A stretch of DNA of 24,000 bases from Streptacidiphilus sp. P02-A3a (GCF_014084105.1 NZ_CP048289.1:419922-443921), one strand, 5' to 3'. Counted from the stretch's first letter, positions 2,399 through 23,152 are shown. The notes: generated by a model from the sequence alone, not told the origin. A program made the numbers and translations.

Positions 2399-3373
2399 AT
2401 GACGTACCGACGTGTGGTCATCGTCCTCTACGAGGGTGTGCAGAGCCTTGACGTGACCGGTCCGCTGGAGGTGTTCGCCGGGGCCGGGGCCGCGCTCGGG
2501 GATCCGGAGGCGTACCGGATCACCACCGCCGCTCTCGGCGGCCGGGTGGTGCGCAGCTGTAGCGGGCTGCGACTGGTACCCGACGAGCAGCTGGACCGGC
2601 TGGCCGCGCCGCACACCCTGGTCGTGCCCGGCGGCACCACGATGGACGACCCCGATCCGGCGCTGGTCCGCCGGATCGCGGTCCTGGCGGCTGCGGCCGA
2701 GCGGGTGGTGTCGGTGTGCACCGGCGCGTTCCTGCTGGCCGAGGCCGGGTTGCTGGGCGGCCGCCGGGTGACCACGCACTGGGCCTTCAGCGACGCGCTC
2801 GCACGGCGCTTCCCCGAGGCCGAGGTCGATCCCGAGCCGATCTTCCTGACGGACGGGAAGTTCGCCAGCTCGGCCGGGGTGACGGCGGGAATCGACCTGG
2901 CCCTGGCGCTGGTCGAGGCGGACCACGGCCGGGACGTCGCGCTGACCGTCGCCAGGCACCTGGTGATGTTCCTGCGTCGGCCGGGAGGCCAGGCGCAGTT
3001 CAGCACCCAGCTCGCCGCGCAGCTGGCCGAGCGGCAGCCGCTGCGGGACGTCCAGCGGTGGATCGCGGAACACCCGGGCGACGACCTCTCGGTCGAGGCC
3101 CTCGCCCGCCGCTCCACGCTCTCGCCCCGGCACTTCGCCCGCGCCTTCGCGGCCGAGGTCGGGGTGACCCCCGGCCGGTACGTGGAGGGGGTGCGCCTGG
3201 AGACCGCCCGCCGCCTGCTGGTGGACACCGTGGACGGGATCGAGGAGATCGCCCGCCGCTGCGGCTACGGCACGTCGGAGGCGATGCGCCGGGCCTTCGT
3301 CCGCACCCTGGCCGTGCCACCGGTCGAGTACCGCCGCCGCTTCCGGCCCCACCAGGCCCAGCGACCGCACTGA
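2399..3373 (+). CDS. GlxA-family transcriptional regulator (DJ-1/PfpI-like N-domain plus AraC-type HTH)
   Basis: N-terminal 'VVIVLYEGVQSLDVTGPLEVF' and 'VCTGAFLLAEAGLLGGRRVTTHW' (class I glutamine amidotransferase-like). C-terminal AraC HTH 'LSVEALARRSTLSPRHFARAFAAEVGVTPGRYVEGVRLETARRLL...IARRCGYGTSEAMRRAF'. Confidence 0.9.
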   Translation: MTYRRVVIVLYEGVQSLDVTGPLEVFAGAGAALGDPEAYRITTAALGGRVVRSCSGLRLVPDEQLDRLAAPHTLVVPGGTTMDDPDPALVRRIAVLAAAAERVVSVCTGAFLLAEAGLLGGRRVTTHWAFSDALARRFPEAEVDPEPIFLTDGKFASSAGVTAGIDLALALVEADHGRDVALTVARHLVMFLRRPGGQAQFSTQLAAQLAERQPLRDVQRWIAEHPGDDLSVEALARRSTLSPRHFARAFAAEVGVTPGRYVEGVRLETARRLLVDTVDGIEEIARRCGYGTSEAMRRAFVRTLAVPPVEYRRRFRPHQAQRPH

Positions 3374-3463
3374 GACCGCGAACCGCACTGAGACCGCGAA
3401 CCGCACTGAGACCGCGAACCGCACCGAGACCGCGAACCGCACTGAGACCGCGAACCGCACCGA
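3361..3463. repeat. 18-bp tandem repeat (unit GACCGCGAACCGCACTGA), 5 full copies plus a partial first copy
   Basis: Read directly. Units at 3374, 3392, 3410, 3428 and 3446. Two allelic forms, ...CACTGA and ...CACCGA. The first copy supplies the regulator's TGA stop (3371-3373). No spacers between copies. Confidence 0.9.
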
Positions 3464-3486
3464 GCCCACCAGAACGGAGCACGCTG

Positions 3487-4119
3487 ATGCAGATCGCCAT
3501 CCTGCTGTACGACCGCTTCACCGCCCTCGACGCGGTCGGGCCGTACGAGATCCTGTCCCGTATCCCCGGCGCGGAGGTGGTCTTCACCGCCGCGAAGCCC
3601 GGGCCGGTCCGCACCGACATGGACAGCCTGGCGCTCACCGCCGAGGTTCCGCTGTCCGAGGTCACCGCCCCGGACGTGCTGCTCGTTCCGGGTGGCCCGG
3701 GCACCGCCGACCAGCTGCGGGACGAGGCCGTACTCGACTGGCTGCGCGCGGTGGACCGGGCGACCAGCTGGACCACCTCCGTCTGCTCCGGCTCGCTGCT
3801 GCTGGCCGCCGCCGGGCTCCTCACCGGGCGGCGGGCCACCTCGCACTGGATCTGCCTGGACGAGCTGGGTGCCATGGGCGCGGTCCCGGTCCCGGACCGA
3901 GTGGTCGTCGACGGCAAGTACGCCACCGCCGCCGGGGTCTCGGCCGGGATCGACCTCGCGTTGCGGCTGACCGGTCGGCTGGCGGGTGACCGCGTCGCTG
4001 AGGCGATCCAGCTGGTGGTCGAGTACGACCCCCAACCGCCCTACTCGGCGGGCTCGGTGGCCACCGCCCCGGCCGAACTCGTGGCCTCGCTGCGGGCCAC
4101 CGGCCTGGTGGTCGGCTGA
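3487..4119 (+). CDS. DJ-1/PfpI family protein
   Basis: ATG 3487 preceded by GGAG. 'IAILLYDRFTALDAVGPYEIL' and nucleophile-elbow Cys 'VCSGSLLLAAAGLLTGRRATSHW'. The longer 2716 ORF is the out-of-frame overlap with the upstream gene. Confidence 0.9.
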   Translation: MQIAILLYDRFTALDAVGPYEILSRIPGAEVVFTAAKPGPVRTDMDSLALTAEVPLSEVTAPDVLLVPGGPGTADQLRDEAVLDWLRAVDRATSWTTSVCSGSLLLAAAGLLTGRRATSHWICLDELGAMGAVPVPDRVVVDGKYATAAGVSAGIDLALRLTGRLAGDRVAEAIQLVVEYDPQPPYSAGSVATAPAELVASLRATGLVVG

Positions 4120-5048: not shown

Positions 5049-5456
5049 TCAGCCGCGCAGGACCCGGGTCACCGCCTGGGTGCGGTCGGTGACGCCCAAC
5101 TTGCCGAATATCGAGTGCAGATGGTTCTTCACTGTCGGCTCGGCGATGACCATCCGACGGGCGATCTGCCGGTTGGACAGCCCGAGCAGCAGCAGTTCCA
5201 TGACCCGGGTCTCACGCTGGGTCAGCCGGGCCAGCGCCGGGGCCGACCACTCCGGAACCCCCTTCTCCGGAACCCCCTTCTCCGGATGCTCGATGATTTC
5301 GCTGGTCCCCCTTTCCTGGCTCCCTTTTCCGGACGGTTCAGGTCCGGCGGCGTGCACCAGGACTTCCAGCCGCGAGACGAGTTGCCCGGCCTCGCGCAGC
5401 AGCGCGGCGAGCATGGTCTCGTCGGTTGTGTCTCCCACGGGCAGCCTTTCGTTCAC
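5049..5456 (-). CDS. small LuxR-family (FixJ/NarL-type C-terminal HTH) regulator
   Basis: 'LTQRETRVMELLLLGLSNRQIARRMVIAEPTVKNHLHSIFGKLGV'. GTG start. No receiver domain. Confidence 0.8.
   Translation of the reverse strand: MNERLPVGDTTDETMLAALLREAGQLVSRLEVLVHAAGPEPSGKGSQERGTSEIIEHPEKGVPEKGVPEWSAPALARLTQRETRVMELLLLGLSNRQIARRMVIAEPTVKNHLHSIFGKLGVTDRTQAVTRVLRG
5251..5286. repeat. 15-bp in-frame tandem duplication (TCCGGAACCCCCTTC x2.4) encoding EKGVPEKGVPE in the LuxR gene linker
   Basis: Read directly in the sequence and in the translation. Confidence 0.85.
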
Positions 5457-5565: not shown

Positions 5566-5593
5566 GGCGGCCGGTCCGGGCGGACCGGCCGCC
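5566..5593 (-). terminator. GC-rich hairpin (12-bp stem GGCGGCCGGTCC / GGACCGGCCGCC, 4-nt loop) just after the oxygenase stop
   Basis: Perfect complementarity read from the sequence, 4 nt beyond the stop codon at 5598-5600. No U-tract, as is common in actinomycetes. Confidence 0.5.
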
Positions 5594-5597
5594 GTGT

Positions 5598-7028
5598 TCA
5601 GGGCCTCCCCAGCAGGTGACTTCCGGCGGCTGCCCGGCCGCGCGCGGTGAAGAATTCCCGGAATCCCGCGATAAACTCCTCCGCATCGATACGCCCGTCG
5701 CCGTCCCGGTCGAGCTGCCGGTATCCGTGGTTGAGCTCGGCGGGGTGGGTGCGCTTGCCGAAGGCCCGGCGGTAGTCGTCCTGCCCGAGGAAGCCGTCCC
5801 CGTCGGTGTCGATGGCGTCGAACAGGGCGCGAGTGGCCCGGTCCAGGCCCTTGCTGAGGTAGTCCGGGTCGTCGTCCAGACCGGCCAGGGTCGCGGCCAC
5901 GAACCCGGCCCGGCTGATCCGCCCCTCGCCGTCGGCGGCCCGGCCGATCTGCTCCCACCAGGCGCGGAAGCCGTCGTACACCTTGGTCTCGGTCGCCGCG
6001 TCGAGTTCCAGGTCCCAGCAGGCGGCGCGGGCCATCGCCTCCAGGTCGGCCCGGGTCAGGTAGCCGTCGCCGGTCTGGTCCAGGACATGGGTGAACAGCC
6101 GTTCCAGCTTGCGGGCACGCAGGTCCCGGCGGAACCGGCCCAGCAGCGAGCCGCCGCCGACGTCCTCACGCGGACCGGCCAGCCGGATCGCGTCGGCCGC
6201 GTACCCCTGGTACCGCCAGCCGCCGTGCAGCCGTTCGGCCAGCGTCCGCCAGCCCCGGTGGGTGAGTCGGGAGAGGGTCCGGGCGCGGCCGGAGGCGGTC
6301 AGTCCGAGCCGGTCCCGGTACGCCGGCGGCAGGTCCGCCACGATCACGGCGACGATCAGCCGGGCCGCGAGCGGGCGGACCGCGAGCCACAGCGGCGGAC
6401 ACCAGCGCAGCTGGGCGGGCGCGACCGCGTGCCGGTAGAAGTCCCCGAGCAGGTCGCGGACCGGCGGGTTGTCCTCCAGCACCTCGCGCAGCATGGTGTC
6501 GAAGTACCGCCAGAAGGACGCCGGGTCGGCGGGCAGCGCCTCCCGGGGCAGGCCCAGGGACACCGCGACGGCCTGCCACTCCTGGTAGAGCAGCGCCTCG
6601 TCCGCCGCCGACAGCGGGCGTCCGGACAGGCGGCACATCGCCACGATGCCCTCGAACACGGTGCCGAGCACCCAGGCGCGGGCGGCGGGATCAGCCGCCG
6701 TGTAGGGGCGGCCGTGGGCGTCGGTGCCGCTGATCCGGCGGTGCTGGCGGCCGATCCGCTCGATCTCGCGGGCCCGGGCGGCGGGCGCGGCGTAGATCAG
6801 CCGTTGCAGGCTGTCCAGGGTGTGCTGGGCCCGGCGCCACGGATGCGCGTGGTACGTCGAGTGCTCCGCCACCCCGGCGCCGACCACCGGGTGGGCGTTC
6901 TGCAGCACCAGCAGTCGGCCCAGCATCAGCAGGAAGCGCCACTCGCCGATATGACGCCAGGTCACCGAACCGGCGCGGGGGTAGCCCTCGGGGTCGGGCA
7001 CGGCCTGGTGCCCGGCGGCGTCAGCCAT
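5598..7028 (-). CDS. MpaB/Lcp-family (DUF2236) oxygenase fused to a C-terminal 4-EF-hand calcium-binding domain
   Basis: N-terminal part 'WRHIGEWRFLLMLGRLLVLQNAHPVVGAGVAEHSTYHAHPWRRAQHTLDSL' looks like the DUF2236 catalytic domain. The C-terminal ~169 aa (5598-6107) carries loops DQTGDGYLTRAD, ADGEGRISRAG (degenerate), DTDGDGFLGQDD and DRDGDGRIDAEE. ATG at 7028 overlaps the upstream stop (ATGGCTGA). Confidence 0.85.
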   Translation of the reverse strand: MADAAGHQAVPDPEGYPRAGSVTWRHIGEWRFLLMLGRLLVLQNAHPVVGAGVAEHSTYHAHPWRRAQHTLDSLQRLIYAAPAARAREIERIGRQHRRISGTDAHGRPYTAADPAARAWVLGTVFEGIVAMCRLSGRPLSAADEALLYQEWQAVAVSLGLPREALPADPASFWRYFDTMLREVLEDNPPVRDLLGDFYRHAVAPAQLRWCPPLWLAVRPLAARLIVAVIVADLPPAYRDRLGLTASGRARTLSRLTHRGWRTLAERLHGGWRYQGYAADAIRLAGPREDVGGGSLLGRFRRDLRARKLERLFTHVLDQTGDGYLTRADLEAMARAACWDLELDAATETKVYDGFRAWWEQIGRAADGEGRISRAGFVAATLAGLDDDPDYLSKGLDRATRALFDAIDTDGDGFLGQDDYRRAFGKRTHPAELNHGYRQLDRDGDGRIDAEEFIAGFREFFTARGRAAAGSHLLGRP

Positions 7029-7968
7029 GGCGCACCTGCCCGTGTCCGGCCAGCAGCAGCCGGGCGGTCGGCAGCAGCGGGTGCCCGACCCGCCGCCGCC
7101 GAACCCGCTCACCGGCTCGCTCGATGGCCTCCAGGTGCAGCGAGTGCATCAGCAGAAAGGCGTTCATCATCGGACGCAGCTCCAGGGGGGTGAGGTCGAG
7201 CACCGGACGGGCGGCGTACAGCGCGGTGCGGGCGCGGGCGATCTGCACGGCGAGCTCCGCGCCGGGCAACCGGACGCGGTCGGCTGGGTCGGCGGGGTCG
7301 GCTGGGTCGGCGGGGTCGGCGGGGTCGGTAGGTTCGGCACGGTCGGTACGGGCGTCCTCGGCCAGGTCGGCCAGGAAGTCGATCCGCTGGCAGGCGGCGG
7401 CGAGCAGCCAGTACGCCCGTGCGTGCCCCGGCTCGCGGCAGCCGGGGTGCACGCCGACCAGCAGCAGCAGGTACGGCAGCGACACCCGGTCCACGTAGCG
7501 CTCGAACTCCGCCTCGCCCGCGAGCGCGGCGCGCCCGCCGCCGGAGGTCCCCTCGGCGTCCTGCCGCATGCCGCTGAGGAAGCGGTTGATCCACTCGGTC
7601 GGCAGCCCGCGCTCGACCGCGGTACGGGCGAACGCGGCCAGCTGCGGGCTCGCCCCGGGCCCCGGTACCGCACCGGCCGCTGTTCCGGCCGCCTCCTCGG
7701 CCAGGGCCCGGCGGACGGTGGCGGACCAGTGGTCGAAGCGCTCCCGGCGGCCGGTCGCCGGGCCGCTGTCGGCGACCGCGTCGGTGGCCCGGGCGAACCA
7801 GTAGCAGACCAGCAGGTGCGGTTGCAGCGCCGCCGGGACCAGCAGCCTGACGGCCAGGCAGTGGACCGGGTCCGCGCGCAGCAGGGTGCGCACGGCCGCG
7901 CGGTACTCCCGGCGCGCGGCCGGGTCCCGGATCCCGGCGAGGTCCAGGGCCCGGCCGAAGCGGATCAT
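7021..7968 (-). CDS. squalene/phytoene synthase family (head-to-head trans-IPPS fold) protein
   Basis: 'RLLVPAALQPHLLVCYWFARATDAVAD' (first Asp-rich DxxxD), 'FERYVDRVSLPYLLLL', 'AACQRIDFLADLAEDA...LPGAEL' (second Asp-rich region), 'MNAFLLMHSLHLEAIERAG'. Start ATG 7968 forms ATGA with the uppS-like stop. The ORF-track 595-aa version adds an Arg-rich artefact. Confidence 0.8.
   Translation of the reverse strand: MIRFGRALDLAGIRDPAARREYRAAVRTLLRADPVHCLAVRLLVPAALQPHLLVCYWFARATDAVADSGPATGRRERFDHWSATVRRALAEEAAGTAAGAVPGPGASPQLAAFARTAVERGLPTEWINRFLSGMRQDAEGTSGGGRAALAGEAEFERYVDRVSLPYLLLLVGVHPGCREPGHARAYWLLAAACQRIDFLADLAEDARTDRAEPTDPADPADPADPADPADRVRLPGAELAVQIARARTALYAARPVLDLTPLELRPMMNAFLLMHSLHLEAIERAGERVRRRRVGHPLLPTARLLLAGHGQVRHG
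7278..7331. repeat. 9-bp in-frame tandem repeat (GGTCGGCKG x6, plus 2 degenerate copies to about 7349) encoding (PAD)n inside the synthase-like gene
   Basis: Read directly. Protein 'EPTDPADPADPADPADPADR', located just after the second Asp-rich motif. Confidence 0.85.
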
Positions 7969-8765
7969 CCGACCCCCCTGGCCGCGCCGAAGCGGCGGGT
8001 CCTGGAGGCGTAGCCCTCGATCGCCCGCCACAGGTCGAGCCGGTCGAAGTCGGGCCAGAGCACGTCGGTGAAGAAGAGCTCGGCGTAGGCGCTCTGCCAG
8101 AGCAGGAAGTTGCTCAGCCGCTGCTCGCCCGAGGTGCGGATGACCAGGTCGACGTCGAACAGGTCGGGGTGGAACAACCGCCTGCCGAACTCCGCGTCGG
8201 TGACGTCGGTCAGCGCCAGCGTCCCGGCCCTGACCTCCTCGCAGAGCTGTGCGGCGGCGGCCACCAGCTCGTCCCGGCTGCCGTAGTCGACGCAGACCGT
8301 GAGGCTCATGCCGTCGTTGTCCCTGGTCCGCCGCTCGTACTCGCGCAGGGTCCCGGCCAGCGGCTCGGTCAGCCGGTCGCGCCGCCCGCTCCAGCGGATC
8401 CGGACCCCGCGCGCGTACCAGCTCTCCCCGTGGTCGAGCAGCAGCTGCCGGATCACCCGCAGCACGCACTCGACCTCGCCCGGATCCCGCCGCCAGTTCT
8501 CGGTGGAGAAGGCGAAGACCGAGATCTGCCCCAGCCCGATCTCCAGCGCGCCGTCGACCGCCTCGACGATCGCGGAGACGCCCGCCTCGTGCCCGGCGCT
8601 CCGGGGCAGCCCCCGCCCGAGCGCCCAACGGCCGTTCCCGTCCATGATCACTGCGACATGGCGCGGTAACCGCTCGGCGGCCACGGTCGGCGGTCGCGCG
8701 CCGGAGGGATGGGGTTTCGTCAATGGCCGGACGACCCGGCTGCCTGATTCTCCGACGTAGGCCAT
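7965..8765 (-). CDS. uppS: isoprenyl transferase (cis-prenyltransferase, UPP synthase family)
   Basis: 'HVAVIMDGNGRWA', 'FAFSTENWRR', 'DLVIRTSGEQRLSNFLLWQSAYAELFF', 'RTRRFG': full set of cis-PT motifs. AAAGGAG SD before the ATG at 8765. I cannot tell whether this is the housekeeping copy or a paralog. Confidence 0.9.
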   Translation of the reverse strand: MAYVGESGSRVVRPLTKPHPSGARPPTVAAERLPRHVAVIMDGNGRWALGRGLPRSAGHEAGVSAIVEAVDGALEIGLGQISVFAFSTENWRRDPGEVECVLRVIRQLLLDHGESWYARGVRIRWSGRRDRLTEPLAGTLREYERRTRDNDGMSLTVCVDYGSRDELVAAAAQLCEEVRAGTLALTDVTDAEFGRRLFHPDLFDVDLVIRTSGEQRLSNFLLWQSAYAELFFTDVLWPDFDRLDLWRAIEGYASRTRRFGAARGVG

Positions 8766-8812
8766 GCGGCTCCTTTTTCGTGGGAAAGTCCTCCGGAACT
8801 CCGAGCATCCGC

Positions 8813-8831
8813 GACCGGATAATGTCCGGTC
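8813..8831. promoter_or_regulatory. 7-5-7 perfect palindrome GACCGGA-TAATG-TCCGGTC in the 203-bp divergent control region
   Basis: Read directly. It lies in the lower-GC stretch between the uppS-like start (8765) and the small-protein operon start (8969). Confidence 0.35.
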
Positions 8832-8968
8832 AATGGGTTTCCGGGTTTCTCGGGGCAGGCCGTTCGAACCAGTTCCTGCGATCTATGGACGCCCCTCCCC
8901 GTGATTGTCAGGCTGGGTGGCGGAGTGAGGCGCACGACAACCGCGCGAACGTATATACGGGAGAATGA

Positions 8969-9256
8969 ATGGCCAGTGACCGGGGTAGGCAGCGGACGAG
9001 TCTGGCGAAATACGTCGGCGGGGTGCTCGAAGCGGTGGAGGAATTCGTCACCGATACCCGCGAATGTGTCGAAGGATTCCTGGAGAACTCGGATTCCGTC
9101 CAGCGGAGCGCGTTGCGGACGGCGCGGCGCGCGCTGCGCCCGGGCAGCGAGCCCGAGCCGGACGAACTGGCCGCGCTGCGGGCGGAGGTGGCCGCACTCG
9201 CCGCCCGGCTCAGCCGGTACGAGGCGGCACCCGCCGACGTACCCGAGCCCGCGTGA
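8969..9256 (+). CDS. hypothetical small protein (95 aa), predicted helical/coiled
   Basis: ATG with GGGAGA SD. Strong third-position GC bias. C-terminal 'DELAALRAEVAALAARLSRYE' heptad-like segment. Stop overlaps the next start (GTGA). Confidence 0.6.
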   Translation: MASDRGRQRTSLAKYVGGVLEAVEEFVTDTRECVEGFLENSDSVQRSALRTARRALRPGSEPEPDELAALRAEVAALAARLSRYEAAPADVPEPA

Positions 9257-9540
9257 GCGCCGCCCCGGAGCAGCCGTCCGGGCCCGGCGGCCCGCTGCGC
9301 CGCACCCGTGAGGGCGTGCTCCGCGACCCGCTGCGTCCGGGGGCCGACAGCGCCGCCCTGGTCCGTGCCGGGCTGCGGGCGGACCGCCGGTTCCGGGTCA
9401 CCGACGAGGAGACCGGGCAGGACTGCACCGTCGAGGTCCTGGCGGAGTTCCTGCTCGGCGCCTGCACCCGCCCGGCCGCCCGGTCGCTCGCCACGGCCCT
9501 CGGCGCGGACGGCCGGACCTCGCCGGTGACGTCCGGGTGA
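9253..9540 (+). CDS. hypothetical small protein (95 aa)
   Basis: GTG 9253 overlaps the upstream TGA. Its own TGA (9538-9540) overlaps the GTG (9537) of the kinase gene. High GC3. No motif recognised. Confidence 0.55.
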   Translation: MSAAPEQPSGPGGPLRRTREGVLRDPLRPGADSAALVRAGLRADRRFRVTDEETGQDCTVEVLAEFLLGACTRPAARSLATALGADGRTSPVTSG

Positions 9541-11045
9541 GGGAACCACGCGGCAACCAGGTCGCTCGGCTGGTCGCCCTGCTGACCTCGGACGCGCTGT
9601 CCGCGCGCGGCGAGGGCCGGGGCGGTGGCGAGCGCCCGCACCGCCGGGCGGTGCGGATCCGGTCGCTGATGGAGGAACTGGGCCCGTTCTACGTGAAGCT
9701 CGGCCAGATGCTGTCCACCCGGCCCGACATCATCAGCGAGGCGCTGACCGTGGAACTCGGGCGGCTGCACCAGGCGGTGCGGCCCACCCCGTTCGCTCGG
9801 TTCGAACCGGTCCTGGACCGGGAACTCGGTCGCGGCTGGCGCCGTGAACTCCGCGACATCGAGGCCGCCGAGCCGCTCGGCTCCGCCTCGCTCGCCCAGG
9901 TCTACCGGGCCACCCGGCCCGACGGCGTCCCCGCCGTGGTCAAGATCCAGCGGCCCGGCGCCCGGGCCCGGGTGCTGGCCGACATGGCGGCGCTGCGCCG
10001 GGCCGCGCGGGTCGTCGGCCGCGCGCTGCCCGGACTGGACGCGGTCTTCGACATCGACGCCACCCTGCACGTCCTCTCCGACGCCATGCAGCCCGAACTC
10101 GACTTCCAGGTCGAGGCCCGGAACATGGAGTCCGCCCGGCGGATGACAGCGGACTTCGACCTGGTCAACGTGCCCGGAGTGGTCCGGGCGACGCCACAGG
10201 TGCTGGTGCAGGACCTGGCCCCGGGAGGGCCGATCGGCTCGGCGCCGGCCGGGGAACTCCCCGTCGCCACCCGGCAGGCGATCGGCAGCCAGCTGCTCGC
10301 CTTCATGTACCGGGGCTACTTCACCGAGCGCTGCTTCCACGCCGATCCGCACCCCGGAAACGTCTTCGTCGACCCGGAGCGGGGCGCCACCCTGATCGAC
10401 TGGGGAATGGTCGGCAGGCTGGACCGCAACCTCAGCGGGCTCGGCATGCTGACCCTCACCAGCCTCGCCCAGAACGACGCCCGGGGCCTGGTCAGCGCCT
10501 GGGTCGGGATGGGCAGGGCGACCCTCCGGGCCGACCTGCCCGGCTTCCAGGAGGACATGAGCCGCCTGGTGCCCAGGATCTCCGCCGCCTCGTTGGAGAA
10601 CCTGGACTTCGGCGTGGCGCTGAGCACCATCCTGCGGCAGTCCGCCCGCCGGGGGATCCGCACCAGCCCGATGATCGGACTGCTCGGCAAGTCCTTCGCC
10701 AACATCGAGGGTTCGGTCCGGCTGATCGCGCCGGAGCTGTCCATCGTCACCGTGTTCCGCGAGGCGTTGACCGACGTGATGGTCGAACTCGCCCGCGAGA
10801 TGCTCTCCGTGGAGCAGTCGGCCCGCACCGCGCTGGACGTGATGGCGGGCGGGACCATCGCCCTGGACCAGATCCGCAGCATCCTGCGGGACGTGTCGGG
10901 CCACGAGGCCACCATGCGGGTCGGCCTGCTGCCGGGACACGGCATCGGCGGCGAGGGGGACGGCCGAGTCAGCCGCTACTGGCCCCATCTCGCGGCCTCC
11001 GCCGGTCTCCTGTGGTTCCTGCGCCGCGAACTCCGGCACCGCTGA
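9537..11045 (+). CDS. ABC1/UbiB (AarF) atypical kinase family protein
   Basis: 'LGPFYVKLGQMLSTRPDI', 'EPLGSASLAQVYRA...AVVKIQRPG', 'DFQVEARN', 'FHADPHPGNVFVD...LIDWGMVGRL': canonical ABC1 motif series. Confidence 0.9.
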   Translation: MREPRGNQVARLVALLTSDALSARGEGRGGGERPHRRAVRIRSLMEELGPFYVKLGQMLSTRPDIISEALTVELGRLHQAVRPTPFARFEPVLDRELGRGWRRELRDIEAAEPLGSASLAQVYRATRPDGVPAVVKIQRPGARARVLADMAALRRAARVVGRALPGLDAVFDIDATLHVLSDAMQPELDFQVEARNMESARRMTADFDLVNVPGVVRATPQVLVQDLAPGGPIGSAPAGELPVATRQAIGSQLLAFMYRGYFTERCFHADPHPGNVFVDPERGATLIDWGMVGRLDRNLSGLGMLTLTSLAQNDARGLVSAWVGMGRATLRADLPGFQEDMSRLVPRISAASLENLDFGVALSTILRQSARRGIRTSPMIGLLGKSFANIEGSVRLIAPELSIVTVFREALTDVMVELAREMLSVEQSARTALDVMAGGTIALDQIRSILRDVSGHEATMRVGLLPGHGIGGEGDGRVSRYWPHLAASAGLLWFLRRELRHR

Positions 11046-17114: not shown

Positions 17115-17720
17115 ATGCGTGATCTTCTGGACCAGGAGCACGGCGTACGGCTGGACATCGCGGCGTATTTCGCCGAGTTCGAGGAGCTGTTCTGGCGTAT
17201 CGGAGCGGAGGGCTTCTGGAAGCTTGAGTGCCTCCAGTCCTACCAGGAACCCGGTTTCGCCAGCTGGGACGCGTTCAACCGGGGCGACTGGGCCGCCTCC
17301 CTGCAACTGCTGCGGGAGGAGGGCCCGGCGTTCGCGGACTTCTACGGGCAGATCCGGGTGGCCGGGTTCAGCCACCACCGGGTCCGCGTGGTGGAGGAGC
17401 CGGTCTCCCCGTACGTGCAGTGGGAACTGCATCTGCTCCAGGCCAAGGACCAGTACGGCGAGGGCGTCTCGGTGCTGACCCGCGACCGCGCGTTGGCCCT
17501 GGGCGCCACCCTGCCGCTGCCCGACCTGGTGGTCCTCGGCAAGGAGGCCCTGTACGAGGTGCACAGCACGCCGGAGGGGCGCCTCGCCGGCGCCACCCGC
17601 TACACGGACCGAGCGGTCGTCGACGGCGTCCGCACCCGCGTCCAGCAACTGCACCGCGGCGGCGAGCCCCTCGCGTCCTACTTCCCCCGAGCCGTCGCCG
17701 ACTTGGCCGCACCGTCCTGA
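17115..17720 (+). CDS. hypothetical protein, DUF6879-like
   Basis: 'FWKLECLQSYQE...W..F..G.W......L....' then 'HRVRVVEEPVSPYVQWEL...YGEGVSVL' resembles my recollection of the DUF6879 family. Good GC3. Confidence 0.6.
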   Translation: MRDLLDQEHGVRLDIAAYFAEFEELFWRIGAEGFWKLECLQSYQEPGFASWDAFNRGDWAASLQLLREEGPAFADFYGQIRVAGFSHHRVRVVEEPVSPYVQWELHLLQAKDQYGEGVSVLTRDRALALGATLPLPDLVVLGKEALYEVHSTPEGRLAGATRYTDRAVVDGVRTRVQQLHRGGEPLASYFPRAVADLAAPS

Positions 17721-17824
17721 GAGCGGGCCGCGACACGGCGGCCGGATCGGCCTCAGTACGATGATCGCCAGCCGACCGGACCCGCCGGTGGGTTTGCCCG
17801 CGGGCGGGGTACGGCCGTGATGCC

Positions 17825-19423
17825 GTGCCCGGACCTGCGATCCTCGTGGAGGTACTGGTGGGCGCACGTGCCCGGTCAATGGTCGGTGGGGTGCTGCTGC
17901 TCATGGTCGGCGGCTCCCTGTGGGGTACGCCGGCGCAGGCAGCGGGGCCCCTGTCCGCGCACCCCGCCGGGCCCGGGGCCCGGACCACGTGCGCGAACCC
18001 GAACCCGATCCCGTTCCACCCGGACTTCCAAGTACGCCACACCACGGGGACCGCGCCGCTGTCCGTGGTGTTCCAGAGCCTGGGTGACCAGGGCCCCTGT
18101 CCGATCGTCAGCACGTCGGTCGACTTCGGTGACCACGCCTCGGCGACGGGCGGCGCGACCCTCGACGTCCCCCACACCTACGCCAAGCCGGGTCTCTACC
18201 GGATATCGGTCACCGAGACCGACGACACCGGTGCCACCGCCAGTGACGACCTCACCACCCTGCTCGGCGGTGTCTACGCCGCGGACGGCCCGCAGCGGAT
18301 CCTGGACACGCGGTTCGGCACGGGTACGGCGAAGCGGCCGGTCCCGCCGGGAGGCACCCTGCGGCTGAAGGTCACCGGCTCCAAGGGCGTGCCCGCCGCC
18401 GGGGTCACCGCCGTCGTCCTGAACCTGACCGCGACCGGCTCCACCGGGGCCGGGTTCATCACCACCCACCCGGGCGGCAGCAGCACCCCGAACACCTCCA
18501 ACCTCAACTTCGCCCGCGACCAGACCATCTCCAACTCGGTCGTGGTCCCGGTCGCGAGCGACGGCACCATCGACCTGACCAACAGCGGCGGCGACAGCAC
18601 CGACCTGCTGGCCGACCTGCAGGGCTACTACACCGTCAGCGGGGGCCCCAGCGCCGGGTTCTACGACAACATCGGCCTCACCACCCGGCTGCTGGACACC
18701 CGGCAGTCCAACGCCGTGCACACCGGAGCGCTGGGCCCCGGCCAGAGCATCACCCTGCCCGTCCCCTTCCGGAGCGCCGACGACCCCGGTGCCTCCGCTC
18801 CCAACGCGGCCACGCTCCGGATCACCACCACGGCCGCGACCGCCAACGGCTACGTGACCGCGTCCGACAGCGCCGGCGCCCCCGGCACCTCCACCGTCAA
18901 CTTCACCGCTGACCAGACCATCAGCAACGTCGCCGTCGTCCCACTCGACGCCAACGGCGCGGTCCACCTCTACAACCACACCGGCCGCACCCAGGTCATC
19001 GTGGACCTCCTGGGAACCTTCAGCACCACCGCCGGCGAAGGCGCCGGCGAATACACCCCGATCACGCCCGAACGGGTGCTGGACACCCGCAACGGCACCG
19101 GAGCCCCCACGGCCAAGCTCCAGCCGGACCAGTTCCTCCAGGTCGACCTGCCCTCGTCGGCGAACCTCCCGATCGGCTCCGCCGTGGTGAACCTCACCGC
19201 GACCCGGGCCACCACCGACACCTACCTGAACGTCTTCGCCTGGGCCGACACCACCGCACCGCCCTCCCCGTTCGCCAGTGTCACCGTCGGCCCCGGCCAG
19301 ACCGTCTCCAGCCTCACCGAGACCAGCCTGGACTACACGTACGGCACCGCTTTCCACTTCGAGGTCCTCAACCCCCGCGGCGACGTCGACGCCATCGCCG
19401 ACGTCGAGGGCTACTACAGCTGA
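17825..19423 (+). CDS. secreted protein: signal peptide, PKD-like domain, then three tandem ~120-aa repeats
   Basis: Signal 'GARARSMVGGVLLLMVGGSLWGTPAQA' (true start probably GTG 17858 or ATG 17879). PKD-like 'GTAPLSVVF...VDFGD...HTYAKPGLYRISVTETDDTG'. Repeats at about 18272-18631, 18659-19021 and 19049-19420, each 'R.LDTR...(V/L)NLTAT...G(F/Y)(I/V)T...NF...QTISN..VVP....G...L....G....(I/L)(V/A)D(L/V).GY(Y/F)'. Confidence 0.8.
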   Translation: MPGPAILVEVLVGARARSMVGGVLLLMVGGSLWGTPAQAAGPLSAHPAGPGARTTCANPNPIPFHPDFQVRHTTGTAPLSVVFQSLGDQGPCPIVSTSVDFGDHASATGGATLDVPHTYAKPGLYRISVTETDDTGATASDDLTTLLGGVYAADGPQRILDTRFGTGTAKRPVPPGGTLRLKVTGSKGVPAAGVTAVVLNLTATGSTGAGFITTHPGGSSTPNTSNLNFARDQTISNSVVVPVASDGTIDLTNSGGDSTDLLADLQGYYTVSGGPSAGFYDNIGLTTRLLDTRQSNAVHTGALGPGQSITLPVPFRSADDPGASAPNAATLRITTTAATANGYVTASDSAGAPGTSTVNFTADQTISNVAVVPLDANGAVHLYNHTGRTQVIVDLLGTFSTTAGEGAGEYTPITPERVLDTRNGTGAPTAKLQPDQFLQVDLPSSANLPIGSAVVNLTATRATTDTYLNVFAWADTTAPPSPFASVTVGPGQTVSSLTETSLDYTYGTAFHFEVLNPRGDVDAIADVEGYYS

Positions 19424-19436
19424 GCCCGTGCGCGAG

Positions 19437-19471
19437 GGGTGCCCCGCCGCGCCAGGCGCGGCGGGGCACCC
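19437..19471. terminator. strong bidirectional hairpin (16-bp stem GGGTGCCCCGCCGCGC / GCGCGGCGGGGCACCC, 3-nt loop)
   Basis: Perfect complementarity, between the convergent stops at 19423 and 19490. Confidence 0.6.
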
Positions 19472-19489
19472 GTTCGCCCCGGCCCGGGC

Positions 19490-20074
19490 CTACTTGTAGC
19501 CGTTCCAGAAGTCCTGGCTGCCGGGGCAGTCGTGGTAGGTGTTCGACGCCCAGTAGGGCGTGCCGTCCTCCCACAGGACGAGGTTGCCGTCGGTCTGCAC
19601 GATGAGCTCGCTGTCCGCGCCGTGCCACTGGTTCATGCTCCACTGGACGCCCTTGATGCCGGTTTCCTCGTTGATGCCGTAGGTGGCGAGGTTGCCGTCG
19701 TTCCAGAAGTCCATCACGTGCAGGTTGCCGCTCTGCTCGTCGACGAAGCCCGATGCCCAGACGGCCTGACCGGCGTTGACGTCGCGGCCCAGGCCGTAGG
19801 AGTAGCCGCCGTTCTTGCAGTACAGCACGAGGTTGCCGTCGGACTGGTACTGGAGGTAGGTGAAGGCGCTGTTCCAGCGGGTGTTCGCCTGCCACTCCGA
19901 GTTGTTGGCGTACAGGGTCGAGGTGTGGGAGCACTGGGAGCTGTCCGCACCGCTGGAGAGGACGGTACAGACGTAGCTGGTTGCCGAAGCCGAGCTCGCT
20001 GGGCCCGCGGCAACGAAGCCGGCGGCGAGGGCGGCGGCTGCGGCGGCGGTCGCGGCTGTCTTCCGGATGCGCAT
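19490..20074 (-). CDS. secreted bulb-type (monocot mannose-binding, beta-prism II) lectin domain protein
   Basis: ATG 20074 with GGAGA SD. Sec signal 'MRIRKTAATAAAAAALAAGFVAAGPASSASA'. Three QxDxNxVxY-type motifs: QSDGNLVLY (canonical), WNDGNLATY and QTDGNLVLW (degenerate). Paired Cys at both ends. Confidence 0.8.
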   Translation of the reverse strand: MRIRKTAATAAAAAALAAGFVAAGPASSASATSYVCTVLSSGADSSQCSHTSTLYANNSEWQANTRWNSAFTYLQYQSDGNLVLYCKNGGYSYGLGRDVNAGQAVWASGFVDEQSGNLHVMDFWNDGNLATYGINEETGIKGVQWSMNQWHGADSELIVQTDGNLVLWEDGTPYWASNTYHDCPGSQDFWNGYK

Positions 20075-20190
20075 GGGGTCTCCTGTCAGAGGGTGGAGGC
20101 CGACGGAGCGGCAGCTCTGGGGCGAGCTCGCACCCGACTCCTCGGTGATCGGTGCGCGCTTCATCGGCGCGACCTCAGCTTTACGGTCGG

Positions 20191-20220
20191 CCCTTACACT
20201 CCGCCTACATCGCGCCTACA
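20191..20220. promoter_or_regulatory. three direct 8-mers (CCCTTACA, CGCCTACA, CGCCTACA) at exact 11-bp spacing; candidate SARP box
   Basis: Read directly at 20191, 20202 and 20213. On the minus strand the array (TGTAGGCG, TGTAGGCG, TGTAAGGG) is followed by an 8-bp spacer and then TAAAGC (20183-20178), pointing toward the lectin gene. Confidence 0.4.
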
Positions 20221-20254
20221 GTCATGGGCCAGGCGGTGACACGGGGGTGTGGGG

Positions 20255-23152
20255 ATGGAATTCAGCCTGCTCGGAACAGTTGAAGCCAGCGATGACGCCG
20301 GGGTGCTCTGCCCGGTGCCGCGGGGACGGTTGCGGAATCTGCTCGCGGCTCTGCTCGTCCACGCCGATGCGGCCGTCTCCGTCGACGCTCTGGCCGCGTG
20401 TGTCTGGGGGGAGGAGCAGCTCCCGCGGCGTCCCCGGGAAGCCCTCCAGGTGATGGTGGTGCGGCTGCGAAAGCACCTCGGCCCCGAAGTCGGCGCGCGG
20501 ATCACCAGTGCCCGGCCCGGGTACCGGCTGCTGGTCCAACCGGGCGAGGTGGACCTGCACCGCTTCGAGGAGCTGCTGCGGCGCGGCTCCGCGGCCCTGG
20601 CTACCCAGGACTGGCCCGCCGCCCGCGACCTGCTCGGGAAGGCGCTGGCGGTGTGGCGGGGGGATCCGCTGTCCGACGTACGCCCCGGCACGGTACTCGA
20701 CCGGGACCGCGACGCGCTGGCCGACCTCCGCTTGCGGGCCCGGATCCAGCTGATCGAAGCCCGCCTTCGGCTGGGCGGCCACGCCGAACTGGTGGCCGAT
20801 GTCGCGGCACTCGTTCAGGACCACCCCTTCGACGAGCAGCTACGGGCCCAGCTCATGCTCGCCCTGTACGGCTGCGGGCGGCGGGCCGAGGCCCTCGAAG
20901 CCTTCCAGAGCGCACGCCGCACCTTCGTGGAGGAACTGGGGATCGAGCCCGGCGTCGAACTGCGGGAGCTGCACCGGGCGGTGCTGGTGGACAGCCCGCG
21001 GCTCGGTCAGTGGGCACCGCCCGGCCCCGCCGCCGCCACCCGCGCACCGACGCACGGAGCCGTCGACTGGGCCGGTCCGGCCCAGTTGCCGGCGGACCTC
21101 GCCGACTTCACCGGTCGGGTACGGGTCGTGGCGCAGCTGGAGGCGCAGCTGGCGAAGGCCACCGGAGCGTGGGCCAGGGGTCCCCTGGTGCTGTCCGCGG
21201 TCAACGGCGCGGGCGGCATAGGCAAGACCTCACTCGCCGTCCACGTCGCCCATCGGGTCGCCGGCCACTTCCCCGACGGTCAGCTCCATGCCGACCTGCA
21301 CGGCACCGGCGGGGTGCCGGCAGAGCCCGGCGAGGTGCTCGCCCGGTTCCTGCGAGGGCTCGGCTTCCCGCCTGAAGGGGTGCCCGCCGACCTGGAGGAA
21401 CGCGGGGCGCTGTACCGGACCACGTTGGCCGCCCGACGGGTCCTGGTCCTGCTCGACAACGTCAGGGACGCCGCTCAGGTGCGTCCGCTGCTGCCGGGTT
21501 CCAGTACCTGTGCCGTCCTGATCACCAGCCGCAGCACGCTCCCCGGGCTCGACGGGGCGTCCAGGCTCACCCTCGACTTCCTCGACCCCGACGAGGCGCT
21601 GGCGCTCTTCACCCACATCGTCGGCTGTAGGACGACCACGGCCGACCTGGAAGCGGTCCACGCCGTGCTCAGGATCTGCGCGGGACTGCCACTGGCCATC
21701 CGCATCGCCGCCGGTCGGCTCGGTGCCAGAACTGACTGGAGTGTCCAGGAGCTGGCCCGGCGGATGGCTGACGAGCGGCTCCGACTCGGTGAGTTGGCGG
21801 TGGAGGACCGGGCGATCCGGACGAGCTTCGCGGTCAGCTACCGCGATCTGACGGCCGATCAGGCACGGGCGTTCCGGCTCCTGGGCCTCGCCGAGGGGCC
21901 CTCCCTCGGCGTTCCCGCCGCAGCCGCGCTGCTGGGCCTGCCAACGGCCGCGGCCGAACAGGTCCTGGAGGCTCTGGCCGATATCCATCTGCTGGAGTCC
22001 CCGGGCCGGGGCCGCTATCAGTTCCACGATCTGCTGCGCCTGTTCGCGGCCGAGTGCGCCCAGGCCTCGGAAACGCCCGCAGACCGGGACGCGGCGGTTC
22101 AGCGGTCGCTCGGCTGGTATCTCGCCAGCTCTGCGGCGGCCTCCCGGGTCCTTCAGCCGACCCGTCGGCACGTGGTGCTCGACCCGCCGGATCCGCGCTG
22201 GCCCGCGAGGGACTTCGACGGTTTCGACGCGGCCCTGGCCTGGTGCGAGACCGAACGGGGCAACCTCGTCGCGGCGGTCGCCCAAGCCACCCGGATCGGC
22301 AGCCACGAGATCGGCTGGAAGCTGCCGATCACCATGTGGGACCTGTTCCACCTGCGCCGCTGGCACGAGGACAACATCAACTGCAACGAGGCCGCACTGG
22401 CCAGTGCCCGGGCTCTGGACGATCGCGAAGCCACCGCCTGGGTACTCAACAGTCTGTCCGCGGCGTACCAGGCGGTGGGGCGGCTGGCGGAGGCAGCGGA
22501 CTGCCTCGACCGTGCCCTGGAGATTCGGACCGCCCTCGGTGACCTGCGCGGAGAGGGGTCCTGCCTGATCAACCTCGGCTACGTCCAGGTGGAGATGGAC
22601 CGGGCGGCGGAGGCGGTCGGGACGCTGGAACGGGCACTGGACATCTTCCGCGCCATCGCCCTGCCCAGCGGGGAGGCCACCGCGCAGACCAACCTCGGTG
22701 AGGCGCACCAGAAACTGGGGGACTTCACCGCCGCGCTACGACACCAGCGGGAGGCGCTCAGGATCCACGCGGAGCAGTCCGACGAGTTCCGGGTCGGCAG
22801 AGCACTGACCAACCTCGCCGAGACCCTGTTCAGGCTCGACCGCCTGGACGAGGCGGCGGACCACGCGGCGCGCGGCCACCAGGTCAACCGGATGACCGGC
22901 AACCAGGTCGACGAGGGGATCGCCTGGGACATCCTGGGCCAGGTGCACGCGGCCCGAGGGCACTACGCACTGGCCCGGCAGCACTGGCAGAACGCCCACG
23001 CCGTCCTCGACCCACTGAGCCACCCGCGCGCGGTGGAGATCGGCCTCCGCCTCGCGGCCCGCTCACCACTGACCGACCGGCCCGCCCCCACCGGCAGCCG
23101 CCCCGGAGCGGGAGAGCCGAACCGTGGCCCTCACGTCAGTGCCGGGCCGTAG
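20255..23152 (+). CDS. AfsR/SARP-family regulator (OmpR-type winged helix, BTAD, NB-ARC P-loop NTPase, TPR)
   Basis: 'MEFSLLGTVEA...LLAALLVHADAAVSVDALAACVW' and 'PGYRLLV' (wHTH). 'WRGDPLSDV...LRAQLMLALYGCGRRAEALEAFQSARRTFVEELGIEPG' (BTAD). Walker A 'GAGGIGKTSLA' and 'VLVLLDNV' (NB-ARC). C-terminal TPR-like repeats. GTG 20249 is an alternative start. Confidence 0.9.
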   Translation: MEFSLLGTVEASDDAGVLCPVPRGRLRNLLAALLVHADAAVSVDALAACVWGEEQLPRRPREALQVMVVRLRKHLGPEVGARITSARPGYRLLVQPGEVDLHRFEELLRRGSAALATQDWPAARDLLGKALAVWRGDPLSDVRPGTVLDRDRDALADLRLRARIQLIEARLRLGGHAELVADVAALVQDHPFDEQLRAQLMLALYGCGRRAEALEAFQSARRTFVEELGIEPGVELRELHRAVLVDSPRLGQWAPPGPAAATRAPTHGAVDWAGPAQLPADLADFTGRVRVVAQLEAQLAKATGAWARGPLVLSAVNGAGGIGKTSLAVHVAHRVAGHFPDGQLHADLHGTGGVPAEPGEVLARFLRGLGFPPEGVPADLEERGALYRTTLAARRVLVLLDNVRDAAQVRPLLPGSSTCAVLITSRSTLPGLDGASRLTLDFLDPDEALALFTHIVGCRTTTADLEAVHAVLRICAGLPLAIRIAAGRLGARTDWSVQELARRMADERLRLGELAVEDRAIRTSFAVSYRDLTADQARAFRLLGLAEGPSLGVPAAAALLGLPTAAAEQVLEALADIHLLESPGRGRYQFHDLLRLFAAECAQASETPADRDAAVQRSLGWYLASSAAASRVLQPTRRHVVLDPPDPRWPARDFDGFDAALAWCETERGNLVAAVAQATRIGSHEIGWKLPITMWDLFHLRRWHEDNINCNEAALASARALDDREATAWVLNSLSAAYQAVGRLAEAADCLDRALEIRTALGDLRGEGSCLINLGYVQVEMDRAAEAVGTLERALDIFRAIALPSGEATAQTNLGEAHQKLGDFTAALRHQREALRIHAEQSDEFRVGRALTNLAETLFRLDRLDEAADHAARGHQVNRMTGNQVDEGIAWDILGQVHAARGHYALARQHWQNAHAVLDPLSHPRAVEIGLRLAARSPLTDRPAPTGSRPGAGEPNRGPHVSAGP

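Follow-up and report, generated by a model that had tools for sequence, protein, structure and literature searches.

A conserved gene cassette of Streptacidiphilus sp. P02-A3a that joins a cis-prenyltransferase, an SQS/PSY-fold enzyme and an MpaB/Lcp oxygenase fused to EF-hands: a possible accessory isoprenoid-lipid pathway

On the minus strand of a 24,000-nucleotide stretch of the genome of the soil actinomycete Streptacidiphilus sp. P02-A3a (NZ_CP048289.1:419922-443921; approximately 72% GC; hereafter the window), three overlapping genes lie between positions 5598 and 8765. They encode a cis-prenyltransferase (gene A), a protein of the squalene synthase/phytoene synthase (SQS/PSY) fold (gene B), and a haem oxygenase of the MpaB/Lcp type fused to EF-hands (gene C). 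The locus raises the question of whether such an assembly is a functional unit and, if so, what it may produce. The analysis revealed a cassette that is real, conserved, and rare, in which known enzyme families are newly combined. The preferred reading of its function, to which a probability of about 0.5 can be given, is a dedicated accessory isoprenoid-lipid pathway in which A would make a Z-polyprenyl diphosphate, B would ionise it, and C would cleave the chain under Ca2+ control.

A conserved and rare seven-gene cassette

The A-B-C trio was found to recur in six lineages, and the 4-nt overlap between A and B could be observed in eight. For the full cassette, the identities of B spanned 47-89%. 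Relative to the window, the sequence identities of A and B were 95% and 79% in the lineage of loci L001/2/3/15, 88% and 66% in L016, 75% and 59% both in L004-7/17 and in L013/18 (where B is broken only by an assembly gap), and 58% and 47% in L008. The tblastn table and the fetched loci showed five further lineages with the order ABC1, small2, small1, A, B, C, LuxR. The order is incomplete in L008, which has neither small2 nor the LuxR gene and carries only a 66-aa open reading frame (ORF) at the place of small1. A GerE/LuxR gene was located directly downstream of C in five of the six cassette lineages. The flanking genes varied by lineage and encoded Nramp; BCCT and P450, ferredoxin reductase, and ferredoxin; STAS and HSP20; or a Ser/Thr kinase and MgtC. 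Since the same gene order is retained amid these differing flanks, the cassette has been kept as a unit. An earlier note on this DNA had proposed one coupled three-gene unit and had set co-conservation of the trio beforehand as its test. The six syntenic lineages bear out the coupling and keep the three genes together; the proposed extent was incomplete, and the conserved unit consists of seven genes, namely A, B, C, small1, small2, ABC1, and GerE/LuxR.

The overlapping codons and the terminal hairpin described in that note were all present. The A/B junction reads GGATGATCC, in which the TGA stop codon of A and the ATG start codon of B share the ATGA at 7965-7968, and the B/C junction is ATGGCTGA at 7021-7028, where the ATG of gene C lies 8 nt ahead of the end of the B stop codon. 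An AAGGAG Shine-Dalgarno sequence is located 7 nt ahead of the gene A ATG (8765). The deposited proteins match the starts of genes A and C exactly (QMU67166 and QMU67164, respectively; QMU67169 is likewise an exact match to the ABC1 kinase), and the start of gene B is backed by six homologues beginning at the same residue. Overlapping stop and start codons are frequent among high-GC actinomycete operons; the overlaps alone therefore prove little, and it is synteny, not the overlaps, that exceeds chance. The hairpin (5566-5593, minus strand) begins 4 nt past the gene C stop codon and consists of a perfect 12-bp GC-rich stem with a 4-nt GCCC loop, without a U-tract. Its minimum free energy was -31 kcal/mol (z = -3.4 compared to shuffled sequences), and it is likely a terminator or an RNA-stabilising stem. 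A consensus terminator scan did not report it, because it lacks a T-run. The GerE/LuxR gene past the hairpin probably forms its own transcript.

The pairing of A and B extends further than the cassette. Distant relatives of B (45% and 38% identity) are likewise preceded immediately by a cis-prenyltransferase gene that overlaps them by 4 nt, and at one of these two loci a LysR gene, not C, follows B. As the adjacency and the overlap persist in distant relatives, A and B represent the tightest pair. Other relatives of B, at 34-44% identity, had no partner genes in their contexts and did not extend the cassette, and tblastn of B against plasmids revealed orphan genes of 30-33% identity in unrelated contexts.

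Relatives of B were rare in every collection searched. A word-indexed search of 5.8 billion proteins returned seven close relatives, all from soil or peat metagenomes, and phmmer, run exhaustively over 1.84 billion representatives, gave 105 matches at E<1e-3, including eight at E<1e-30. The metagenome collection yielded four loci. Among 185,579 species-representative genomes, no relative was returned in scans that used either the B-clade alignment or small2, and the copy of the source genome itself was likewise not returned. Literature searches did not reveal a description of the gene combination or a matching pathway, in agreement with the earlier note, which had recognised none.

Two features of related loci were also observed. 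In L004-L007 (e.g., L004 1821-4633), the genes immediately past ABC1 encode a ferredoxin reductase, a P450, and a ferredoxin, for which a tailoring function specific to this lineage is possible. Orphan members of the SQS/PSY family, sharing 30-36% identity with B, were found both in Streptomyces chromosomes and on large linear plasmids (L009 6206-8942; L023, L024), and a prenyl diphosphate synthase gene was linked in none of these contexts; a distant orphan of the family in S. globosus stands directly after a Ser/Thr kinase gene.

Core enzymes and accessory genes

Profile searches matched the proteins to PF01255, PF00494, PF09995, and EF-hand families, which agrees with the domain assignments of the earlier note (cis-prenyltransferase, SQS/PSY, MpaB/Lcp, and EF-hand). 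Gene A (7965-8765, minus strand) encodes a 266-aa cis-prenyltransferase with the full set of catalytic and isopentenyl diphosphate (IPP)-binding motifs. It matched PF01255 (Prenyltransf) with an E-value of 2e-72 (243.9 bits, threshold 27) and TIGR00055 with 236 bits (cut-off 109.55). The Asp of MDGNGRWA and the FSTENW and RxSGExRxSNF motifs were all present, with D42, S87-W91, and R210-N219 invariant in alignment A7. The protein could be aligned without gaps over 245-248 residues with the polyprenyl diphosphate synthases 7CPN and Rv2361c; given this alignment and the full motifs, elongation with IPP is expected of A. The identity of A is 53% with 7CPN and 49% with Rv2361c, compared to 65% between those two. 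Helix alpha-3 is known from established work on UPPS to line the chain-length tunnel, and 15 of its 18 positions are replaced in A. Because this helix is almost wholly replaced, the chain length probably differs from that of the housekeeping enzyme.

Further comparison separated A from ordinary actinobacterial UPPS. Identity within the A clade was 75-95% and then fell to at most 58-62% for the ordinary enzymes, and all eight cluster-linked copies, including those of the distant loci L008 and L019, carry DYGSR for NYGGR and FAFSTENW for YAFSTENW. NF011404 and NF011402 are NCBIfam models for the housekeeping actinobacterial isoprenyl transferase/decaprenyl diphosphate synthase, the former being an equivalog model with a cut-off of 372 bits. 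A scored 294 bits against NF011404, and three other cluster-linked copies scored 259-294 bits, all below the cut-off, whereas the Streptomyces and Microlunatus controls (P0182, P0207, and P0246) passed with 415-422 bits. Against NF011402, A reached 268 bits, also below the cut-off of 535. Neither recO nor era neighbours A within the window. The identification of A as the housekeeping uppS was thus rejected on the NF011404 result, and judged by its sequence A is a specialised, cluster-specific paralogue. That A is the sole uppS copy of P02-A3a is also very unlikely: uppS is an essential gene, yet the representative genomes contain no such cassette.

Gene B (7021-7968, minus strand) encodes a divergent class-I isoprenoid enzyme of 315 aa. 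It matched PF00494 (SQS_PSY) with an E-value of 3e-23 (83.3 bits, threshold 26), and its AlphaFold2 (AF2) model, with a predicted local distance difference test score (pLDDT) of 89, showed the SQS/PSY fold. Both Asp-rich motifs, D63xxxD67 and D201xxED205, were invariant among homologues, and Y158 is conserved. When a profile built from the B clade only was searched against the PDB, the E-values were 3e-13 for LvqB4, 4e-11 for HpnC, 6e-11 for CqsB4, 0.011 for YisP, 0.12 for PSY, and 0.39 for CrtM. Fold comparison ranked the relatives in the same way, with template modelling (TM) scores of 0.71-0.73 to the carbazole prenyltransferases LvqB4 and CqsB4.

Residue-level alignments around the second motif revealed QxTNILRDxGED in PSY (5IYS) and the CrtM-like 8IS6, QVANHMQDIDRD in HpnC, QLLDFIWDLRED in LvqB4 and CqsB4, and QRIDFLADLAED in B. 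The motif of B is therefore of the prenyltransferase type, QxxDF[IL]xDLxED, which is common to the carbazole prenyltransferases: in Q194xxD197xxA200D201, Asp and Ala replace the Asn and Arg of QxxNxxRD. PSY, CrtM, and HpnC retain an Arg three residues ahead of the first motif; at this position the carbazole prenyltransferases have Tyr, and the B clade shows R, L, H, or D. Against the HpnC and HpnD equivalog models, B scored only 53 bits (cut-off 250) and 41 bits (cut-off 279). The most likely reading of these features is that a single diphosphate substrate is ionised by B.

Gene B is intact and not decaying. Among three closer lineages, its ratio of nonsynonymous to synonymous substitution rates (dN/dS) was 0.34-0.54, compared to 0.19-0.29 for A and 0.14-0.31 for C, and no stop codon was present in B in any lineage tested. 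Although higher than those of A and C, these ratios indicate purifying selection on the B sequence. A 9-bp tandem repeat encoding (PAD)n lies inside the gene at 7278-7346 (minus strand; residues about 212-235), with a period of 9 and 7.7 copies according to Tandem Repeats Finder. The earlier note had considered a dead enzyme with Asp-rich motifs disrupted by this insertion; inactivation by the repeat was rejected, as the motifs are intact and the insert is a window-specific, low-confidence surface loop (pLDDT 52-61) past the second motif, found in no homologue. Low-complexity inserts of other kinds were seen in B by lineage: GDPAAGG is repeated three times in loop 1 of L013 (8864-9670), and P0001 has a Gly/Glu/Pro/Thr-rich stretch. 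The surface loops of B appear to be hot spots for repeat expansion.

Gene C (5598-7028, minus strand) encodes a 476-aa protein in which an oxygenase domain (approximately residues 24-257) is fused to a CabD-like domain of four EF-hands (approximately residues 300-465). The match to PF09995 (MPAB_Lcp_cat) had an E-value of 3e-55 (188.4 bits, threshold 23) and that to EF-hand_7 an E-value of 3e-14. The EF domain also matched the S. coelicolor Ca-binding protein 3AKB (E 3e-13, residues 307-462). Canonical 12-residue loops are located at 317, 407, and 440; of the four loops, the second is degenerate. For the N-domain, the AF2 model (pLDDT 88) was compared using Foldseek, which returned the t-anethole oxygenase 8S1J (TM 0.62) followed by Lcp 5O1L, with probabilities of 0.96-1.0. 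PDB sequence searches with this domain, either as a single sequence or as a 12-sequence profile, gave nothing meaningful, and the link to anethole oxygenase and Lcp is made by fold comparison alone. R66, T70, and H96 were invariant in 23 homologues of C, with a spacing comparable to that of R164, T168, and H198 of Lcp, their putative counterparts, although the searches with C gave no direct alignment to Lcp. No signal peptide or N-terminal hydrophobic leader could be detected, and one hydrophobic helix is present at 213-231. As it lacks a signal peptide, C is predicted to be a cytoplasmic protein, perhaps working at the membrane; the likeness to latex-clearing protein drawn in the earlier note does not hold in its strict sense, since C has no secretion signal. 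The C proteins linked to the cluster form a closer group at 57-96% identity. Fusions of MpaB and EF-hand domains approximately 50% identical to C are also found in Streptomyces, Kitasatospora, and Peterkaempfera (372 matches at E<1e-10), and in the two contexts examined (L011 10001-11425; L012 10001-11425) the gene was alone, without partner genes.

The remaining members lie on both sides of the trio. A second coupled operon, small1-small2-ABC1, diverges from A across a 203-bp gap, and its members are joined by GTGA overlaps. ABC1 (9537-11045, plus strand) encodes a 502-aa atypical kinase of the ABC1/UbiB family (PF03109, E 1e-48, 165.9 bits, threshold 22.9); wherever a cassette locus extended far enough to show the gene, it was found, with 67-95% identity. 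The product of small1 (8969-9256, plus strand) has 95 aa, is helical with a C-terminal coiled coil, and was kept at 53-92% identity in five lineages. It matched no family above threshold; sub-threshold matches were obtained to DUF6779 (E 0.002-0.005) and Phasin (E 0.15). The small2 gene (9253-9540, plus strand) has a GTG start and also encodes 95 aa, with a nearly invariant core, RFRVTDEETGQDCTVEVLAEFL, and three of four sequences had sub-threshold matches to PHB_acc_N, the N-domain of PhaR (E 0.005-0.008). Being below the Pfam thresholds, the phasin/PhaR similarity of the two proteins may be taken as a hint. The GerE/LuxR-type regulator (5049-5456, minus strand) has 135 aa and matched PF00196 with an E-value of 3e-18. 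Within its gene, a perfect 15-bp repeat of 2.5 copies at 5250-5286 encodes EKGVPEKGVPE in the N-terminal half of the protein.

In the divergent promoter region between the two operons (8766-8968), alignment of five lineages revealed a near-palindrome, GGAACyGGTyCGAACGGCC (8858-8876; GGAACTGGTTCGAACGGCC in the window), and CATTGACC at 8828-8835, both conserved in four or five of them. On this conservation, the two can be regarded as candidate operator and -35 elements, respectively. A sigma-70 promoter scan gave nothing and self-comparison of the divergent intergenic region revealed no repeats; the palindrome emerged only through the cross-lineage alignment.

Other features of the window lie outside the cassette. 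An 18-bp tandem array of 5.6 copies (96% matches) at 3364-3464 extends over the last part of a gene for an AraC/DJ-1 regulator (2399-3373) and the spacer that separates it from a DJ-1/PfpI gene (3499-4119), and it gives rise to long spurious repeat ORFs on both strands. Beside ABC1, the plus-strand segment 11149-11600 aligns with no more than positions 108-220 of the AICARFT/IMPCHase (purH) profile, which has 311 positions, contains no ORF with good third-position GC, and is probably a gene remnant. The region 17115-23152 encodes a DUF6879 protein, a PKD-domain protein, and a 967-aa SARP-type BTAD/NB-ARC/TPR regulator, which fits a variable chromosome region rich in secondary metabolism.

Candidate functions of the cassette

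The preferred pathway would proceed in three steps. Judging from its intact motifs, A would elongate an allylic primer with IPP to a Z-polyprenyl diphosphate, probably of a length unlike that of the housekeeping product. B, which synteny suggests to be an obligate partner, would ionise this single diphosphate at its two Asp-rich motifs, and the polyprenyl cation would pass to a nucleophile, whether an acceptor molecule, water, or a double bond within the chain. In this, B would resemble the carbazole prenyltransferases, HpnC, or YisP and not a two-substrate head-to-head synthase. C, cytoplasmic and possibly membrane-peripheral, with the fold of a haem dioxygenase, would then cut a C=C bond of the chain to give carbonyl-ended fragments, and the fused EF-hand domain would place this cleavage under Ca2+ control. 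The small1-small2-ABC1/UbiB operon may handle or regulate the hydrophobic lipid, and the GerE/LuxR protein, perhaps together with small2, may act at the inter-operon palindrome as its putative operator. The general idea of the earlier note, that a Z-isoprenoid is made, modified, and then cleaved, is plausible as a hypothesis.

Several observations weigh against this pathway. B is only 17-18% identical to LvqB4 and CqsB4, and its Tyr158 is shared with PSY, CrtM, and HpnC, the carbazole prenyltransferases having Phe. The TM-scores are close, at 0.71-0.73 for the prenyltransferases versus 0.65-0.70 for the synthases. Approximately 20 residues past the second motif (the GR[IL]Y[LVI][PT] segment and the next helix), present in all characterised relatives, are missing from B, so its chemistry may match none of them. 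Genes for building an acceptor, carbazole or other aromatic, are absent from the window and from all cassette loci. For C, the putative haem-ligand triad is matched to that of Lcp by its spacing, the searches having given no match to Lcp at the sequence level. Furthermore, MpaB::EF-hand proteins of approximately 50% identity stand alone in many Streptomyces and Kitasatospora genomes, so that C need not depend on A and B.

A weaker alternative, which must be considered unlikely, is that B is a true head-to-head (1'-1) synthase joining two A-made Z-prenyl diphosphates to a symmetric hydrocarbon, which C would cleave to lipids or signals. Membership of PF00494, the two Asp-rich motifs, and a Tyr matching the conserved PSY/CrtM Tyr are all consistent with such a synthase, as are the conserved coupling of A and B and the presence of HpnC, an enzyme of the squalene pathway, among the three best PDB relatives of B. 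A neutral product would also fit the sub-threshold phasin/PhaR similarity of small1 and small2. Head-to-head coupling is nevertheless not favoured, because among characterised enzymes B stands nearest to the carbazole prenyltransferases and HpnC and not to phytoene or dehydrosqualene synthases; PSY (0.12) and CrtM (0.39), the true two-substrate enzymes, were the most distant in the PDB search. The Asn and Arg of QxxNxxRD are replaced by Asp and Ala, the Arg before the first motif is variable, and the HpnC and HpnD scores are far from their cut-offs. A has no indels relative to two polyprenyl diphosphate synthases, and if its product were long-chain, the dimer would be very large for the fold of B. 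The earlier note had equated the SQS/PSY fold with head-to-head coupling of trans substrates, and this proved too narrow for a protein nearest to LvqB4/CqsB4 and HpnC that lacks that Asn and Arg.

It seems decidedly improbable that the cassette makes no metabolite of its own and adjusts the polyprenyl-phosphate carrier pool in stress, with A as supplier, B and C disposing of or recycling the surplus, and ABC1 and LuxR as regulators. The nearest enzymes to A are indeed long-chain carrier-lipid synthases, all of whose catalytic motifs it retains, the EF-hand domain suggests control by a signal, and the neighbours in various lineages are stress or ion related (Nramp, MgtC, HSP20, STAS, and BCCT). 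However, a role in general homeostasis would not be expected of a cassette absent from 185,579 species-representative genomes, the clade-specific changes in the tunnel helix and in NYGGR of A point to a different product, and no carrier-lipid phosphatase, kinase, or glycosyltransferase gene is linked to the cassette.

More doubtful still is an intracellular store of neutral cis-polyisoprenoid, a rubber-like inclusion mobilised by Ca2+, in which A would polymerise, B would remove the diphosphate by 1'-1 coupling or hydrolysis, and C would be the internal depolymerase. The phasin/PhaR-like small1 and small2 would then sit at the lipid surface and ABC1 would resemble the plastoglobule kinases, in parallel with the granule cycle of polyhydroxyalkanoate. 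That A, B, and C are merely adjacent genes of unrelated function, A being the housekeeping uppS or B a decaying gene, is hardly credible: overlaps of stop and start codons are frequent in high-GC operons, B is the fastest-evolving gene, and relatives of B and C can stand alone, but six lineages hold the order while the flanks reshuffle, A fails NF011404 where the controls pass, and B combines a dN/dS below 1 with invariant catalytic motifs and a model pLDDT of 89. The remaining probability belongs to chemistries outside these readings.

If the preferred pathway is true, B would be the first bacterial SQS/PSY-fold enzyme serving as the dedicated partner of an IPP-elongating cis-prenyltransferase, and C the first alkene-cleaving haem oxygenase of the Lcp/MpaB type to act intracellularly, controlled by Ca2+, on a Z-isoprenoid made by the same cell. 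The pathway would also provide a first function for the orphan 'squalene/phytoene synthase family' proteins of Streptomycetaceae, for the widespread MpaB::EF-hand fusions, and for the ABC1/UbiB kinases of organisms without ubiquinone. The cassette is small (6 kb) and present in a cultured strain, and is suited to direct heterologous expression.

Comparison with known systems

The cassette fits none of the compared systems as a member. The best matches of A are the decaprenyl diphosphate synthase Rv2361c and 7CPN, which it follows without gaps and with all catalytic motifs; it differs from them in its 49-53% identity, its rewritten alpha-3, DYGSR in place of NYGGR, and scores below the equivalog cut-offs. 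SQS, CrtM, CrtB/PSY, and HpnC/HpnD share with B the fold, the Asp-rich motifs, and the conserved Tyr. In contrast to these enzymes, B carries neither the Asn nor the Arg in its second motif, falls far under the HpnC/HpnD cut-offs, and is partnered by a cis-prenyltransferase and not by a trans-isoprenyl diphosphate synthase, with no desaturase or cyclase gene linked.

The carbazole prenyltransferases LvqB4, CqsB4, and NzsG have the same fold as B, are its best matches in both sequence and fold, and have the QxxDF[IL]xDLxED motif in common with it. The product of cyclolavandulyl diphosphate synthase (CLDS) serves as donor for the carbazole in lavanduquinocin; this donor role would be a precedent for the pairing of a cis-prenyltransferase fold with an SQS-like enzyme. 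CLDS has the cis-prenyltransferase fold (PMC11776366), and its structure 5YGJ matched A with an E-value of 9e-12. NzsG and CqsB4 are established prenyltransferases of the SQS/PSY fold with two Asp-rich motifs and one prenyl diphosphate donor (PMC7466098). These pairs differ from the cassette in the low identity (17-18%), in having Phe at the position of the B Tyr, in retaining the approximately 20 post-motif residues which B lacks, and in the acceptor genes, none of which are linked here. CLDS condenses dimethylallyl diphosphate, whereas A is by its motifs a normal IPP-elongating cis-prenyltransferase.

For C, the same Pfam family and fold are found in Lcp, t-anethole oxygenase 8S1J, and Nro1. 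Lcp, a haem b dioxygenase, cleaves the double bonds of poly(cis-1,4-isoprene), with His198 as haem ligand and with Arg164 and Thr168 (PMC5522427), and Nro1, an actinobacterial MpaB-family enzyme, cleaves the C=C bonds of synthetic rubber (PMC12724181). Lcp is secreted and catabolic and has no EF-hand fusion, whereas C has no signal peptide, is encoded in a biosynthetic-looking operon, and gave no sequence-level match to Lcp. The mycophenolic acid pathway is fungal and uses a UbiA-type prenyltransferase (MpaA') with trans-farnesyl diphosphate as the donor, and its oxygenase MpaB' has no EF-hand. It is nonetheless similar to the proposed pathway in that a prenyl chain is attached by MpaA' and a C=C bond of this farnesyl chain is cleaved directly after the transfer by MpaB' (10.1101/524025), an oxygenase of PF09995, the family to which C belongs.

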